Of a stretch of DNA of 64,000 bases, positions 3,776 to 53,401 are shown in pieces. Where the stretch lies: positions 249,652 to 313,651 of the forward strand of contig JADJPQ010000009.1 of NCBI GenBank assembly GCA_016713175.1, in the 5' to 3' direction. The position numbers were made by a program, and so were the translations under genes. The first letter of the stretch is position 1. The number at the start of each line of letters is the position of its first letter. This stretch comes from Planctomycetota bacterium (lineage in GTDB: Bacteria > Planctomycetota > UBA1135 > UBA2386). The notes beneath the pieces were generated by a model. It ran no database searches, was not told the DNA's origin, and worked only from the letters and a program-made list of their open reading frames with translations.

Positions 3776-3832
3776 AAGGGTGCAGCTCCGGCATGGGCGC
3801 TGCAGGTTTCCGGATGGTCGGGCCGCCATCCG
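3776..3832 (+). promoter_or_regulatory. Riboswitch candidate, nhaA-I-like (Li+/Na+) motif
   Basis: GGGTG leader; P1 TGCAGC(3781-3786)/GCTGCA(3799-3804); AGGTTT linker; P2 CGGATGG(3811-3817)/CCATCCG(3826-3832) with loop TCGGGCCG; directly 5' of RBS GGAGG (3838-3842) of a cation/H+ antiporter. Match to nhaA-I is from memory. Confidence 0.62.
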
Positions 3833-40731: not shown

Positions 40732-42606
40732 TCATTCCGGTCTCGTGCCGCTCGTAGGCTGCTCCCCGCTGCCGGGTAACGTCACCGGCGATGGGCCGGG
40801 ACCCGGCGCCGACTTGCGAGAACTGCGATCCGGCCAGTCCAACCATTGCCGTCGCAACCGCACGGCAGGTTCGGGCGCCGCATCGAGAACCTCGAGCCCG
40901 ATCGTGCCGACTGGTGGTTCGGTTGGCGTGACCACACGCTCGAGGATTCGACCACGCGACGCGATCAGGACGCGGAGGCTCCTGCCCACCGCGGCGATCG
41001 TGCCAAACACCTCGGACCAGGAAGCGGACTGAACGCGAATCCCATCCAAGCCGAGAATCTCGTCGCCGGGCGCCAGCCCGGCGGCAAGAGCGGGTCCATC
41101 GTCGTTGACGAAACTGATCCTCGTCGAGTCGTCGGCGAAGGCGAGCCCAAGGTACGGCCGGTCGCGGTCGCGGTTCGTCAATTCGATGCCGAACGACAGC
41201 AACAACGGTCGCAGTTCCGGGTCCAGACTGCCCCGAACCAGCGAATCGACCGTGGTTGCCATGTCGCGACGAGCGGCTTCGGACAACGCCGCCACGACAT
41301 CGGCATGAGTGTAGCCACGCCCGGCAAGGAACGTCGTCCGGTACAGGATGCGCAGGGCGTCGTCGAGGCTCGCACCGCCGTCGGTGGCCTGGCGTATCAT
41401 CAGGTCGAGAACCAGCGCGGCGATCGAGCCGTTGACGTAGTAATTCTGCGTCGAGTTGCGCGTGTTCTCGTCGGGGCGATACAGCCGGATCCAGGCATCG
41501 AAACTCGAATCTGCCAGCGACTGCTTGAAGCGGCCCATCGAACCGAACACGGTGCCGATGCTCTTGGCCAGCAAGGCCAGGTAATCACTGCGCGAGATCA
41601 CGCCGGCGCGCAGACACAGCAGGTCGTCGTAGTACGCCGTGAAGCCTTCGGCGAGCCACAGCATCGGCGTGTAGTTCTCGACTTCGTAGTCGTAGTCCCA
41701 CAACTCGCGCGGTCGCATCCGCTTCACGTTCCAGACGTGGAAGAACTCGTGGGCGCACAGCGACAGGAACTGTTGGTATCCCTTGCCTGGCCGCATCGCC
41801 GTGCGCGCGGCCAACAGCGTCGTCGAATCGGCGTGCTCGAGGCCGCCGTGGCCACTCTCGGTGAACAAGCAGTGGAACTGGTAGCTTGCGTACGGCAATT
41901 GGCCGCCGAACACGTCACTGGCACGCTCGAGGATTGCGGTCAGGTCGTCGAGGAATGACGCCGGCGCGCACACCCCGTTCAGGCCCTCGAGGATCACGCT
42001 GTGCGGAACGCCGCGCAGCAGCCAGTCGAGCCTGGTGAAGACTCCAGCCAGGCACGGCGAATCCATGGCGTGATCGAGGTCGTTCGCCGACAACACGATC
42101 TCGTCGCGATGGGCGGCCGGGCCGTCGATCCGCGACAGGCTCGTCGCGAGTTGCCAGCCGGCTGGCAACAGCAGCGTGATCCTGGCCTTGCAGTCGCGTT
42201 GGCCGAGCGGCCAGAGCAGGACGCAGGCGTGGTTCCAGTACGCATGTTCTGGCGTTACGTCCGCGGTCCGGACCGACAGTTCGTGGGCGTAGACCTGGTA
42301 GGTGACGCGGATGCGGCGGACTTGTCCTGGCAGCGTCAATCGGAACCGGTTCTTGCTCACCTTCTGACACGGAATCGCGACGCCGGTGTGCGCGTCGGCG
42401 GCGGTCACTGCACTCAGATGGCGCGCATACTCGCGGATCAGATAGCTGCCTGGGGTCCAGGTTGGCAGGAACAAGGTCGCCTCGCCATCGGCAAGACCGG
42501 CAACCAAGGTATCCCGGCCGCATTCGAGCGTGACCAGGATCCGTCGCCGTTCGGGAGCTCGGAGGTCCAGCCTGAAGCTGAGTGGTTCCAAGGTCTTGGA
42601 TGGCAC
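40732..42606 (-). CDS. M61 family metallopeptidase with PDZ domain
   Basis: PTWTPGSYLIREY, GGLEH, HEFFH.WN.KR, WLAEGFTAYY, YYVNG, PDZ (AGLAPGDEI); start is GTG 42606 (inside tRNA) or TTG 42591. Confidence 0.92.
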   Translation of the reverse strand: MPSKTLEPLSFRLDLRAPERRRILVTLECGRDTLVAGLADGEATLFLPTWTPGSYLIREYARHLSAVTAADAHTGVAIPCQKVSKNRFRLTLPGQVRRIRVTYQVYAHELSVRTADVTPEHAYWNHACVLLWPLGQRDCKARITLLLPAGWQLATSLSRIDGPAAHRDEIVLSANDLDHAMDSPCLAGVFTRLDWLLRGVPHSVILEGLNGVCAPASFLDDLTAILERASDVFGGQLPYASYQFHCLFTESGHGGLEHADSTTLLAARTAMRPGKGYQQFLSLCAHEFFHVWNVKRMRPRELWDYDYEVENYTPMLWLAEGFTAYYDDLLCLRAGVISRSDYLALLAKSIGTVFGSMGRFKQSLADSSFDAWIRLYRPDENTRNSTQNYYVNGSIAALVLDLMIRQATDGGASLDDALRILYRTTFLAGRGYTHADVVAALSEAARRDMATTVDSLVRGSLDPELRPLLLSFGIELTNRDRDRPYLGLAFADDSTRISFVNDDGPALAAGLAPGDEILGLDGIRVQSASWSEVFGTIAAVGRSLRVLIASRGRILERVVTPTEPPVGTIGLEVLDAAPEPAVRLRRQWLDWPDRSSRKSAPGPGPSPVTLPGSGEQPTSGTRPE

Positions 42607-42677
42607 GCCCGAGAGGATTCGAACCTCTGACCTGCGGCTCCGGAGGCCGCCGCTCTATCCAGCTGAGCTACGGGCGC
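42601..42677 (-). tRNA. tRNA-Arg(CCG)
   Basis: GCGCCCGTAGCTCAGCTGGATAGAGCGGCGGCCTCCGGAGCCGCAGGTCAGAGGTTCGAATCCTCTCGGGCGTGCCA; anticodon loop CT-CCG-GA, TTCGAA T-loop, encoded CCA. Confidence 0.97.
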
Positions 42678-51571: not shown

Positions 51572-51895
51572 TCAGATGGCGATCTGACGGCGCAGTCGGC
51601 GGCTGAGAACCTCGGACAGCACCCGCCGCAAATCACCGCGTCCCTTTGTGTCCAGCCAGCCGCCCGTAGCCTGATCCCAGGCGAAATGCCAAGCCGACGC
51701 TCCTTCTGCCAGCCAGATCTGCTGGGCGGCGGTCTGCCGATTCATCACGCAGACTTTGCCGTCGCCGAACCGGATCTTCAGCACGCCGCTCGACAGGTCG
51801 GCTTCGATTTCGTCGGGATCGAAGGCGTCCAGCACGCCCAGAACCTGGACCATGGCGTTGTCAGCCCGGTGCAGGAAGTCTGGCTCAAGAGTCAT
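51572..51895 (-). CDS. cyaY: Iron donor protein CyaY (frataxin)
   Basis: GVLKIRF, VMNRQTAAQQIWLA, GAWHFAW; start chosen at ATG 51895. Confidence 0.88.
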   Translation of the reverse strand: MTLEPDFLHRADNAMVQVLGVLDAFDPDEIEADLSSGVLKIRFGDGKVCVMNRQTAAQQIWLAEGASAWHFAWDQATGGWLDTKGRGDLRRVLSEVLSRRLRRQIAI

Positions 51896-52024
51896 CGACG
51901 AGTGGATCGACCAGAAGAGCGCTGGTGTCGGCTGCAACAGGGTAGAAAACAAGAGCGAAATTCCGGGCAAGGAAGCGACAACCACTGGACAAGATCCAGG
52001 CGCCGGACTAGAAGCGGTGTTGCC

Positions 52025-52065
52025 AAAAAAGAGCGGCCGGCGACCCTCTCCCAGGATCGCCGGCC
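52025..52065 (-). terminator. Rho-independent terminator
   Basis: Minus strand GGCCGGCGA-T-CCT-GGGAG-AGG-G-TCGCCGGCC followed by GCTCTTTTTT. Confidence 0.85.
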
Positions 52066-52069
52066 ACAG

Positions 52070-52258
52070 CTAGGGTCCTGACCGCCAAGTGCCCTCTCGT
52101 GCGTCTCGCCTCCCTGCAGAGGCTTCTCGTTCGGCTTCCCGGTCGCCTTGTCGCTCGTTACCGCTTCCCAACCCTTGCGGGTCCGGTTGCGATCGCGGGC
52201 GGAGCAGGCTTACGGGTCACCTGGCGAACTGAGACGCGGGCGGTCAGGACCGCTCGTC
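52070..52258 (-). ncRNA. Structured ~180-nt ncRNA, 6S RNA (SsrS)-like candidate
   Basis: Perfect 13-bp closing stem 52074-52086/52239-52251; inner stem GCGTCTC/GAGACGC; central unpaired region; apical ACCC-GCAA-GGGT GNRA hairpin; -10 TACTGT (52265-52270); A-tract upstream; terminator downstream. Confidence 0.6.
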
Positions 52259-52402
52259 CCATGCACAGTAGTAGACGCACAAGAGCGTAGAACTTTCCAA
52301 GCTAGTGCATTTTTTTTCTGCGTGGCACAGAGTTCGGTTGGTCGGCAAACAGGCTGGTCCGACCGAAAGGGAACCGAAGCTGCTGGCGACCGGCTAGTTG
52401 CG

Positions 52403-53401
52403 TTAACGCTTGGCGAGTCGATGAGCCCGCTGGACCCAGCCATCCACCAGATTGGCCACCTGGATGCCCTCGGCATCGGCCTCGAACGCAAGTAGAACGC
52501 GATGTCGCAGGGCCGCAACTACGGAGGCTTCGACATCTTGCTGGGTGACAGCGGCCCGACCTGACAACAGGGCCCTGGCCTTCGCAGCCAACACGACTGC
52601 CTGTCCCGCACGCGCACTTGCGCCATAACGAACGAATCGCTTCGTTCGTTCGTCGACATCGGATCCATCCGGGTGGGTCGCGTGCACGAGCTCGGCGACA
52701 AACCGGACGAGGTGGGACGCGCACAGGACCTGGCGTACCAACAGCTGCAGCGACAGCAGCTCGGCCGCGGTCAGCATCGGTCGGATCTCAGGCGACGGTT
52801 GGCCGGTGGTGGCTTCGAGGATCCGGACCATCGCGTCAACCGACGGCGTCTTCACTTCGAGCTTGAACAGGAACCGGTCGAGTTGGGCTTCCGGCAGCGG
52901 GTAGGTGCCCTCCAGCTCGATCGGATTCTGCGTGGCTACCACGTGAAACGGCACCGGTAGGCGATGCGATGTGCCGGCGACGGTGACCGACCCCTCCTGC
53001 ATCGCCTCCAGCAACGCCGATTGGGTCTTGGGGGTCGCCCGATTGATCTCGTCGGCGAGCACCAATCCAGCGAAAATCGGGCCCTGCTGGAAACGGAACG
53101 AGCGGTGGCCGTCGCGTTCGTCGACGACCAAGGTACCGGTCACATCGCTCGGCATCAGGTCGGGGGTGAACTGGATGCGGGACCAGTCGAGGCCGAGTCC
53201 GCGACCGAGTAGCCGGACCAGCAGGGTCTTGCCAAGGCCCGGCAGGCCTTCCAGCAGGATGTGCCCGCCCGCAAGCAAGCCGACCAAGAGATCGTCGACG
53301 AGCGCTTCCTGGCCGATCAGTTGGGAACACACCGTCTGGCGCAAGCCGTCCACGCGCCTGAGCAGGTCTTCGGTCGCCTGTTTGAGTCGCGCGCCGTCCA
53401 T
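52403..53401 (-). CDS. MoxR-family AAA+ ATPase
   Basis: HILLEGLPGLGKT, RIQFTPDLMPSD, DEINRATPKTQSALLEAM, QNPIELEGTYPLPEAQLDRF. Confidence 0.95.
   Translation of the reverse strand: MDGARLKQATEDLLRRVDGLRQTVCSQLIGQEALVDDLLVGLLAGGHILLEGLPGLGKTLLVRLLGRGLGLDWSRIQFTPDLMPSDVTGTLVVDERDGHRSFRFQQGPIFAGLVLADEINRATPKTQSALLEAMQEGSVTVAGTSHRLPVPFHVVATQNPIELEGTYPLPEAQLDRFLFKLEVKTPSVDAMVRILEATTGQPSPEIRPMLTAAELLSLQLLVRQVLCASHLVRFVAELVHATHPDGSDVDERTKRFVRYGASARAGQAVVLAAKARALLSGRAAVTQQDVEASVVAALRHRVLLAFEADAEGIQVANLVDGWVQRAHRLAKR

Follow-up and report, generated by a model that had tools for sequence, protein, structure and literature searches.

A small RNA between moxR and cyaY specific to one family of uncultured Planctomycetota

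Background

What is encoded in the unannotated interval between the genes moxR and cyaY of a planctomycete from the assembly GCA_016713175.1? The interval lies in a stretch of 64,000 nucleotides (nt) of the contig JADJPQ010000009.1 (positions 249,652 to 313,651 of the forward strand), which was analysed as a whole and is hereafter called the window; all coordinates without a contig label are window positions. An earlier sequence-only reading had proposed that 52025-52320 holds a stand-alone, rod-shaped RNA of about 180 nt on the minus strand, either a divergent 6S RNA or a new class of noncoding RNA. We show here that the locus encodes a previously undescribed small RNA (sRNA) specific to one family of uncultured Planctomycetota, and we weigh several explanations of how this RNA is produced and what it does.

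A structured RNA on the minus strand

Positions 52263-52025 of the minus strand, on which all features below lie unless stated otherwise, comprise a closing helix of 13 base pairs (bp), an inner stem and a strong intrinsic terminator. The minimum free energy (MFE) of the segment 52290-52025 was -144.2 kcal/mol, compared with -112.9 +/- 5.6 kcal/mol for dinucleotide shuffles (z = -5.6), and none of the 200 shuffles folded as well. The inferred 5' end is formed by the segment CAUGGGACGAG (52253-52263), a candidate seed that is unpaired in the MFE fold of 52263-52025. The closing helix P1 follows, with its 5' strand GGUCCUGACCGCC at 52239-52251 and its 3' strand GGCGGUCAGGACC, supported by covariation, at 52074-52086. 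At the DNA level, these strands are the perfect 13-bp match of GGTCCTGACCGCC (52251-52239) with GGCGGTCAGGACC (52086-52074) that had been reported from the sequence alone. Within P1, the 7-bp base of the hairpin P2 pairs GCGUCUC (52231-52237; GCGTCTC in the DNA) with GAGACGC (52101-52107) in the predicted fold. The 5' strand of P2 is extended by a rod-like expansion of 107 nt (52124-52230), and the tip hairpin GCCUCUGCAGGGAGGC (52108-52123) matches the P2 loop of related RNAs, which is of the GCAGGGA or GCAA type. On the 3' side, the one-sided internal loop J2/1, ACGAGAGGGCACUU (52087-52100), contains the nearly invariant motif GAGAGGGC at 52098-52091. The terminator (52025-52067) consists of a 15-bp hairpin (52067-52033) with the loop UGGGAGA and a U6 tract (T6 in the DNA) at 52030-52025; a terminator scan detected the hairpin on the minus strand only, the strand on which its two G-U pairs make it valid.

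The sequence-only reading thus described the minus strand correctly in many respects: the A8 tract (52317-52310), the 13-bp helix, the 7-bp inner stem, the purine-rich internal loops, the rod tip capped by GCAA and the terminator with its G-U pairs were all found where it had placed them.

Conservation and covariation within the family

These data raise the question of how widely the structure is shared. When the region was compared with related genomes by BLAST, only its two ends proved to be conserved, and the central 110 nt were missing from the relatives. The relatives carry an RNA of about 125-150 nt between moxR and cyaY, with a common layout: CAUGGGACGAG, P1 (consensus GGUCCCGRCCGCS plus its complement), the P2 hairpin, a 3'-side loop with GAGAGGGC, a short linker and the terminator. 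P1 stacks straight onto a short hairpin in these RNAs, and the one-sided loop on the 3' side measures 9-19 nt. A covariance model, R1, built from ten sequences of homologous loci, detected one strong copy per genome in 82 of the family's 91 genomes; among the 31 of high quality, 30 had it. The carriers are uncultured Planctomycetota represented by metagenome-assembled genomes, the only form in which the family is known. The sister families of the order gave few weak R1 matches, merely similar GC-rich terminators, and homologues outside the family were rejected on the ground that the likeness lay in the terminator alone.

The helices are supported by covariation. In the 51-sequence model alignment, P1 and the terminator together were 95.6% paired, 21 of 27 pairs showed compensatory changes, and 117 double-change cells were counted; none of 500 shuffles reached the real values, and slid partners gave only 27-48% pairing. 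Considered separately, the 13 pairs of P1 were paired in 92% of the cells, with compensatory changes in 10, while the 14 terminator pairs of the relatives' model were 98.5% paired and 11 of them had compensatory changes. Most homologues have UGGGAGA as the terminator loop. For P2, whose sequences are unrelated and whose length varies, a hairpin fold was nevertheless obtained in essentially all of the 51 homologues (median z = -4.1); GAGAGGGC is present in 49 of them. As for CAUGGGACGAG, its first ten bases were identical in 14 of 14 sequences, and the whole segment was identical in about 50 homologues. No other part of the RNA is as conserved as this 11-nt segment, which is unpaired. It does not covary with P1, and its invariance therefore needs another cause; a seed function, binding of a protein or constraints close to the promoter would be examples.

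Two loci depart from this pattern. The copy in G023 (L130, G023:C6:3990580-3991180) is divergent, with a different -35 region, a long GC-rich terminator and a weak U-tract. In G085 (L129), degenerate GCATGGGACGG and GGGGGACGAGCGAACCCCC elements lie upstream of cyaY, and no moxR was visible within the 600 nt examined.

A search of the window against Rfam 15 at gathering thresholds returned no match for this RNA. The two matches elsewhere in the window were an nhaA-I riboswitch at 3778-3831 on the plus strand (55.6 bits) and a transfer RNA gene at 42604-42677 on the minus strand. Relaxing the threshold to E<=10 in 51900-52450 yielded only terminator look-alikes (E>0.5), and the homologous loci of ten relatives gave nothing at E<=1. 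We are highly confident that this is a real conserved structured RNA forming a new family limited to one Planctomycetota lineage. The stand-alone, unannotated structured RNA of the sequence-only reading is borne out by the covariation, by the absence of an Rfam family and by the discrete signal in RNA sequencing runs described below. Its proposal of a new class stands as well; the 6S half of that proposal does not, as the following comparison makes clear.

Relation to 6S RNA

Judged by this genome alone, the RNA does fit a divergent 6S RNA (SsrS, RF00013), which would bind the RNA polymerase holoenzyme through a bubble mimicking a promoter: the size agrees, and so does the rod, in which a long closing stem leads to internal loops and a tip. 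The RNA described here is also abundant, single-copy and near-universal within its family, as 6S RNA is. The question is whether this geometry is a property of the RNA or of this copy. The 107-nt rod that produces it was found in none of the approximately 50 relatives compared; the point of insertion corresponds to the place where, for example, G015 carries a 2-nt bulge. The rod sequence occurs only once in the genome, for which reason an origin from a repeat or a mobile element was rejected. In strain-variant contigs (X3, X31), the identity with the window extends from the terminator as far as 52123, beyond which unrelated sequence takes over; the P2 expansion thus varies between strains. What looks like a 6S rod is therefore an expansion of P2 private to this genome. 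Accordingly, neither the 180-nt rod nor the stem-bubble-stem geometry is a conserved property: the unit measures about 239 nt or more here, and the rodless RNAs of the relatives are shorter by some margin, as given above.

The architecture typical of 6S RNA, namely a closing stem, a two-sided central bubble and a terminal stem, was not seen in the 51 homologues, whose conserved core lacks the bubble and the terminal stem. RF00013 gave no match at this locus even at E<=10, and none at E<=1 in the ten relatives. Moreover, unlike 6S RNA, this RNA ends in an intrinsic terminator, and genomes that carry it have separate full-length RF00013 matches elsewhere. The gathering score of RF00013 is 46.4 bits; G018 has a match above this cut-off at C3:1449739 (50.7 bits) and the RNA described here at C5:903765, and G020 has a match at C1:920925 (45.5 bits) and this RNA at C1:4131147. 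The same separation of the two loci holds for G012, G007, G006 and others. The only RF00013 signal of the present genome is partial (C16:8642-8756, 15.7 bits). It shows the typical bubble flanks UUGAACC...CCCACCUG...GGUUCAA and is the best blastn match of the above-threshold 6S RNA of G018; G000:C16:8642-8763, on the minus strand and outside the window, is probably the true 6S RNA of this genome. With no model match, no bubble architecture and separate 6S loci, the 6S identity was rejected, and we regard it as extremely improbable.

Transcripts in wastewater and sludge communities

Another important question is whether the RNA is present in cells. The exact sequence occurs in public wastewater and sludge metatranscriptomes. 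Assembled contigs matched the window at 51976-52315 (X1), 52064-52315 (X3), 52041-52299 (X4), 52009-52233 (X5), 52089-52243 (X14) and 52075-52214 (X25). In six of the seven matching RNA runs, contigs were confined to approximately 51976-52315, leaving the bodies of moxR and cyaY uncovered; X17 alone contained an unbroken contig from the 3' end of moxR (52477) into P1 of the RNA (52229). The RNA is thus a discrete species that outlasts or outnumbers its neighbours, with the caveat that contig depth measures abundance poorly and that contig ends are imprecise and can be extended by low-level read-through. The X25 contig had a depth of 176 and an Illumina adapter joined to it at 52075, at the last pair of P1, which suggests either an abundant form without the terminator hairpin or a fragment duplicated by the polymerase chain reaction. 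Two runs searched as raw reads, X42 and X43, contained zero matching reads.

A candidate promoter

Upstream of the RNA, two short elements are conserved at a fixed distance. The -35-like element TTGGAAAGTT (52291-52300; core GGAAAG at 52298-52293) is conserved in 49 genomes, and the -10-like element CGTCTAC (52271-52277), which contains the CGTC typical of extracytoplasmic function (ECF) sigma factors, hardly varies and is followed, after 6-8 nt, by CATGGG, the start of the conserved 5' segment. The spacing between GGAAAG and CGTCTAC is exactly 15 nt in all 49 of these genomes, over a spacer of variable sequence. Farther upstream, a tract of four to eight A residues precedes GGAAAG by 10-15 nt in 44 of the 49 relatives; in the window, it is the A8 tract (52310-52317), at which several run contigs end on their 5' side and which may act as an UP element.

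ECF promoters combine an AAC-type -35 with a CGT-type -10 element, approximately 16-17 nt apart; a fixed distance across a spacer of variable sequence, an AA-rich -35, CGTC at -10 and an A-tract farther upstream are features of such promoters. By this comparison, GGAAAG-N15-CGTCTAC looks like a promoter of the ECF-sigma type. The -10 hexamer TACTGT proposed by the sequence-only reading found no support, as it falls in the sole non-conserved stretch of the upstream region, the 6-8-nt spacer, and the conserved elements are GGAAAG and CGTCTAC. Sigma-54 and sigma-70 readings were rejected on inspection: for the former, the spacer is not conserved at -12, and for the latter, TTGGAA and TACTAC are 19-21 nt apart. 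A looser pattern, GGAA-N16-18-CGTC, occurred in the window at chance level and was absent from the nearby ECF operon.

The A-tract often lies in the loop of a short hairpin (52305-52330 and homologous sites) whose arms vary, for instance CACCAC/GTGGTG or GCTGCTGA/TCAGCAGC, and TTGGAAAGTT is likewise flanked by complementary arms in some genomes; such hairpins are not universal. Just past the moxR stop codon, there is a direct repeat TTCGGT-N5-TTCGGT with an 11-nt period (52361-52378), and other genera have GTTTCGTCAC...TTCTTCACG at this site. The repeat may be a regulator binding site or a structure of the moxR 3' end.

A possible base-pairing RNA

What could such an RNA do? We infer, at a probability of about one half, that it is an independently transcribed RNA that acts in trans by base pairing through a 5' seed. 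Transcription would proceed from its own ECF-sigma-type promoter, composed of the A-tract and GGAAAG-N15-CGTCTAC, and would start at or beside CAUGGG. The invariant 5' end, perhaps together with the GAGAGGGC loop, would then serve as the seed for regulation of targets in the manner of RybB and MicA, and read-through transcripts from moxR may add a longer form that is cut within the A-tract.

This interpretation draws on the likeness to the sigma-E and ECF-dependent sRNAs of enterobacteria (RybB, MicA, MicL). Like them, the locus would be a stand-alone intergenic gene, with a strongly conserved putative promoter of the alternative-sigma type and rigid -35/-10 spacing, and the extreme 5' end of its RNA is the most conserved part. 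Both a single-stranded conserved 5' segment and a Rho-independent terminator, here backed by covariation, are present, as in RNAs of the RybB/MicA type. The RNA has no homology to RybB, MicA and MicL in sequence or structure, exceeds them in size (125-240 nt) and is closed by a long helix; in addition, no Hfq was detected, the promoter motif is unique in its genome, and contigs suggest extra 5' ends upstream.

Several observations weigh against this interpretation. The first concerns the targets. An HU-like and a CinA-like gene have the 10-nt complement of the RNA's 5' end, TCGTCCCATG, at their start codons, but it was not kept at 49 HU homologues from metagenomes, and the HU messenger RNA (mRNA) was rejected as a target for this lack of conservation; no conserved target was found in this comparison. 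A tblastn search of the genome, a weak test, revealed no Hfq. The extended promoter motif was found only once in the 7.9-Mb genome by a position weight matrix scan, with other scores at control level, and it is absent from the ECF operon located 6 kb away. Hence, no regulon can be named, and neither a regulon nor an autoregulated sigma gene links the motif to an ECF sigma factor; a regulon defined by this motif was rejected, as the whole-genome scan returned the RNA's own site alone. Furthermore, the 5' ends of the contigs, at 52315, 52315, 52314, 52306 and 52299, lie 36-52 nt upstream of CATGGG, so at least some transcripts start upstream of the proposed promoter, and ends in the A-tract conflict with a single start at about 52263. 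Finally, the strict order moxR-RNA-cyaY in 49 of 50 loci could instead point to a role in cis. The last two points each lead to an alternative that deserves closer attention.

The HU-like (G000:C4:509308, minus strand) and CinA-like (G000:C29:183792, minus strand) genes both open with AGTCGTCCCATG, in which ten bases match the complement of the RNA's invariant 5' end. No complement of the conserved motifs was found in 16S ribosomal RNA (rRNA) or in the sequence downstream of 16S rRNA.

Start site or processing site

Does the RNA begin at a promoter, or is it cut from a longer transcript? An endonuclease cutting in the A-rich tract could release it as the stable, structured 3' portion of a longer RNA, either a moxR transcript or one that arises at or before the A-tract; in that case, GGAAAG...CGTCTAC would function as an RNA element and not as a promoter. 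The recurrence of contig 5' ends at 52314-52315, inside the A8 tract, and also at 52306 and 52299, agrees with this proposal, as does the single contig that runs unbroken from the moxR 3' end into the RNA. Complementarity beside the A-tract and TTGGAAAGTT also exceeds that in cross-genome permutations (p<=0.0004), and CGUCU can pair with GGACG of the 5' segment, a pairing kept by the rare variants CGUUC, CGUUU and CGUCC. However, the effect of the flanking helices is small, approximately 1-1.7 kcal/mol, and they are missing in many genomes, whereas a distance fixed at 15 nt in all 49 genomes, across a spacer that is itself not conserved, is typically a sign of recognition by sigma factors and not of an RNA linker. 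Moreover, moxR was uncovered in six of the seven matching RNA runs, and the contig ends are imprecise and can be lengthened by low-level read-through. An origin entirely by processing of moxR transcripts appears rather improbable to us, both for the release of the RNA and for the reinterpretation of the conserved elements. To reconcile the upstream ends with a promoter-driven RNA, we prefer to suppose that moxR read-through is cut in the only A/U-rich stretch.

Gene neighbourhood and a possible role in cis

The second alternative arises from the position of the RNA. The upstream neighbour is moxR (52403-53401), which encodes a MoxR-type AAA+ ATPase (Pfam AAA_3, E = 1.2e-60) and precedes the RNA in the same orientation at all 50 loci compared. 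Downstream lies the frataxin-like gene cyaY (51572-51904, likely start at ATG 51904; Pfam Frataxin_Cyay, E = 2.2e-18), which follows in the same orientation at 49 of these loci; the remaining one is truncated by the end of its contig.

Such an arrangement could mean that the RNA is a cis-acting leader of cyaY, an attenuator resembling a riboswitch or controlled by a protein, and that the abundant short RNA is simply the terminated leader. Transcription would begin at the conserved promoter, an aptamer-like domain made up of the 5' segment, P1, P2 and the GAGAGGGC loop would then determine whether the terminator forms, and read-through would express frataxin. The fixed place directly before cyaY in loci from many genera is what such a leader would show, and so is the short distance from the U-tract to the cyaY start in some of them (approximately 15-35 nt in L019, L013 and L008), which leaves little space for a separate promoter; among all loci, this distance extends to more than 200 nt. 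The layout also resembles that of terminating riboswitches and leader attenuators: the junction nucleotides are conserved, the peripheral hairpin varies, and the terminator comes 2-12 nt after the closing helix P1. In addition, GGGAC in the 5' segment is able to pair with GUCCC of the P1 5' strand in an alternative hairpin, and the run contigs end near the terminator, one of them continuing 50 nt beyond it.

Other features do not fit this explanation. The 5' segment remains invariant while P1 changes, and the GGGAC/GUCCC hairpin is therefore not maintained by covariation. This invariant segment lies 5' of P1 and outside it, unlike in riboswitches and attenuators; no convincing antiterminator was evident by inspection, the P1 3' strand and the terminator 5' strand both being G-rich, and the RNA belongs to no Rfam class. 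Four genomes of the family without the RNA (G043, G014, G086 and G008) keep moxR and cyaY 55-85 nt apart, and in sister families cyaY occurs in other contexts without such an element; the RNA gene therefore looks inserted into a moxR-cyaY pair. Furthermore, relatives (L029, L043, L010 and L012, for example) share a CATCATC-like motif 10-14 nt ahead of the cyaY ATG. The motif, which reads ATCCAC in the window (approximately 51905-51920), may be the -10 element of a leaderless or near-leaderless cyaY mRNA. Its recurrence suggests that cyaY has its own promoter, which weakens the case for a leader or attenuator.

Taking both sides together, we consider control of cyaY by attenuation unlikely, and the detailed scheme with an aptamer-like domain has the same standing. 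It is somewhat more doubtful still that the locus represents a new ligand- or protein-responsive frataxin attenuator, with the 5' segment and the GAGAGGGC loop as the sensor, or else a housekeeping protein-binding RNA of the whole family. A literature search for an RNA motif associated with cyaY found nothing. The independence of the proposed trans-acting RNA from cyaY is argued for by the genomes that lack the RNA and keep the gene pair, by the cyaY genes of other families and by the CATCATC-like motif.

Possible protein binding and coding potential

The exposed G-rich motifs invite a comparison with the protein-sequestering RNAs CsrB, RsmY and RsmZ. By analogy with CsrB and RsmZ, an RNA-binding protein would be titrated by three G-rich single-stranded sites, namely UGGGAC at the 5' end, GAGAGGGC in its loop and UGGGAGA in the loop of the terminator. 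Throughout the family, similar GGGA/GAGGG motifs are kept in unpaired positions, with a further GCAGGGA in the P2 loop of some species and more such motifs in the rod of the present genome. The RNA, moreover, occurs once in nearly every genome of the family and is seen in RNA runs. With the CsrB group it shares a terminator and G-rich motifs that are repeated and exposed, either in loops or as single strands. Here, however, these motifs read GGGA/GAGGG instead of A(N)GGA and number only about three, and GAGAGGGC is without a GGA core. The P2 loop motif is not conserved, being GCAA or UUAC in many species. A search for CsrA (PF02599) gave no match in the 7.9-Mb genome, which is 90% complete, while control genomes were positive; a CsrA sponge was rejected for this reason, and no other candidate partner protein was identified. 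We thus regard sequestration of a protein as quite improbable.

Could the conserved 5' end instead be a coding sequence? An AUG begins at the second base of the conserved 5' end, within the invariant CAUGGG, and could open a leaderless mRNA for a small peptide; the first residues, MGR(V/A)VP, are indeed shared, owing to the conserved RNA sequence. However, the open frame varies from 8 to 198 codons among 50 homologues, from which we conclude that the RNA is not coding; conservation does not extend past the P1 strand, and substitutions track base pairing and not codon position. A peptide is accordingly a most improbable product of this locus.

Conclusions

Regulatory RNAs of Planctomycetota are almost unexplored, and a full-text literature search for small RNAs and 6S RNA of Planctomycetes found nothing about the RNA described here. 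The case also calls for caution in annotation based on shape, as a lineage-private expansion segment can make an unrelated RNA resemble 6S RNA. If the attenuator explanation were true, the locus would be the first RNA switch dedicated to the control of frataxin and iron-sulfur cluster assembly. The constant position of the RNA, with a MoxR ATPase gene on one side and frataxin on the other, raises the possibility of a connection with iron-sulfur cluster biology, which can be tested. Because it is near-universal and single-copy, supported by covariation and visible in RNA runs from wastewater communities, the RNA is a usable entry point to sRNA regulation, and possibly to alternative-sigma regulation, in this group.

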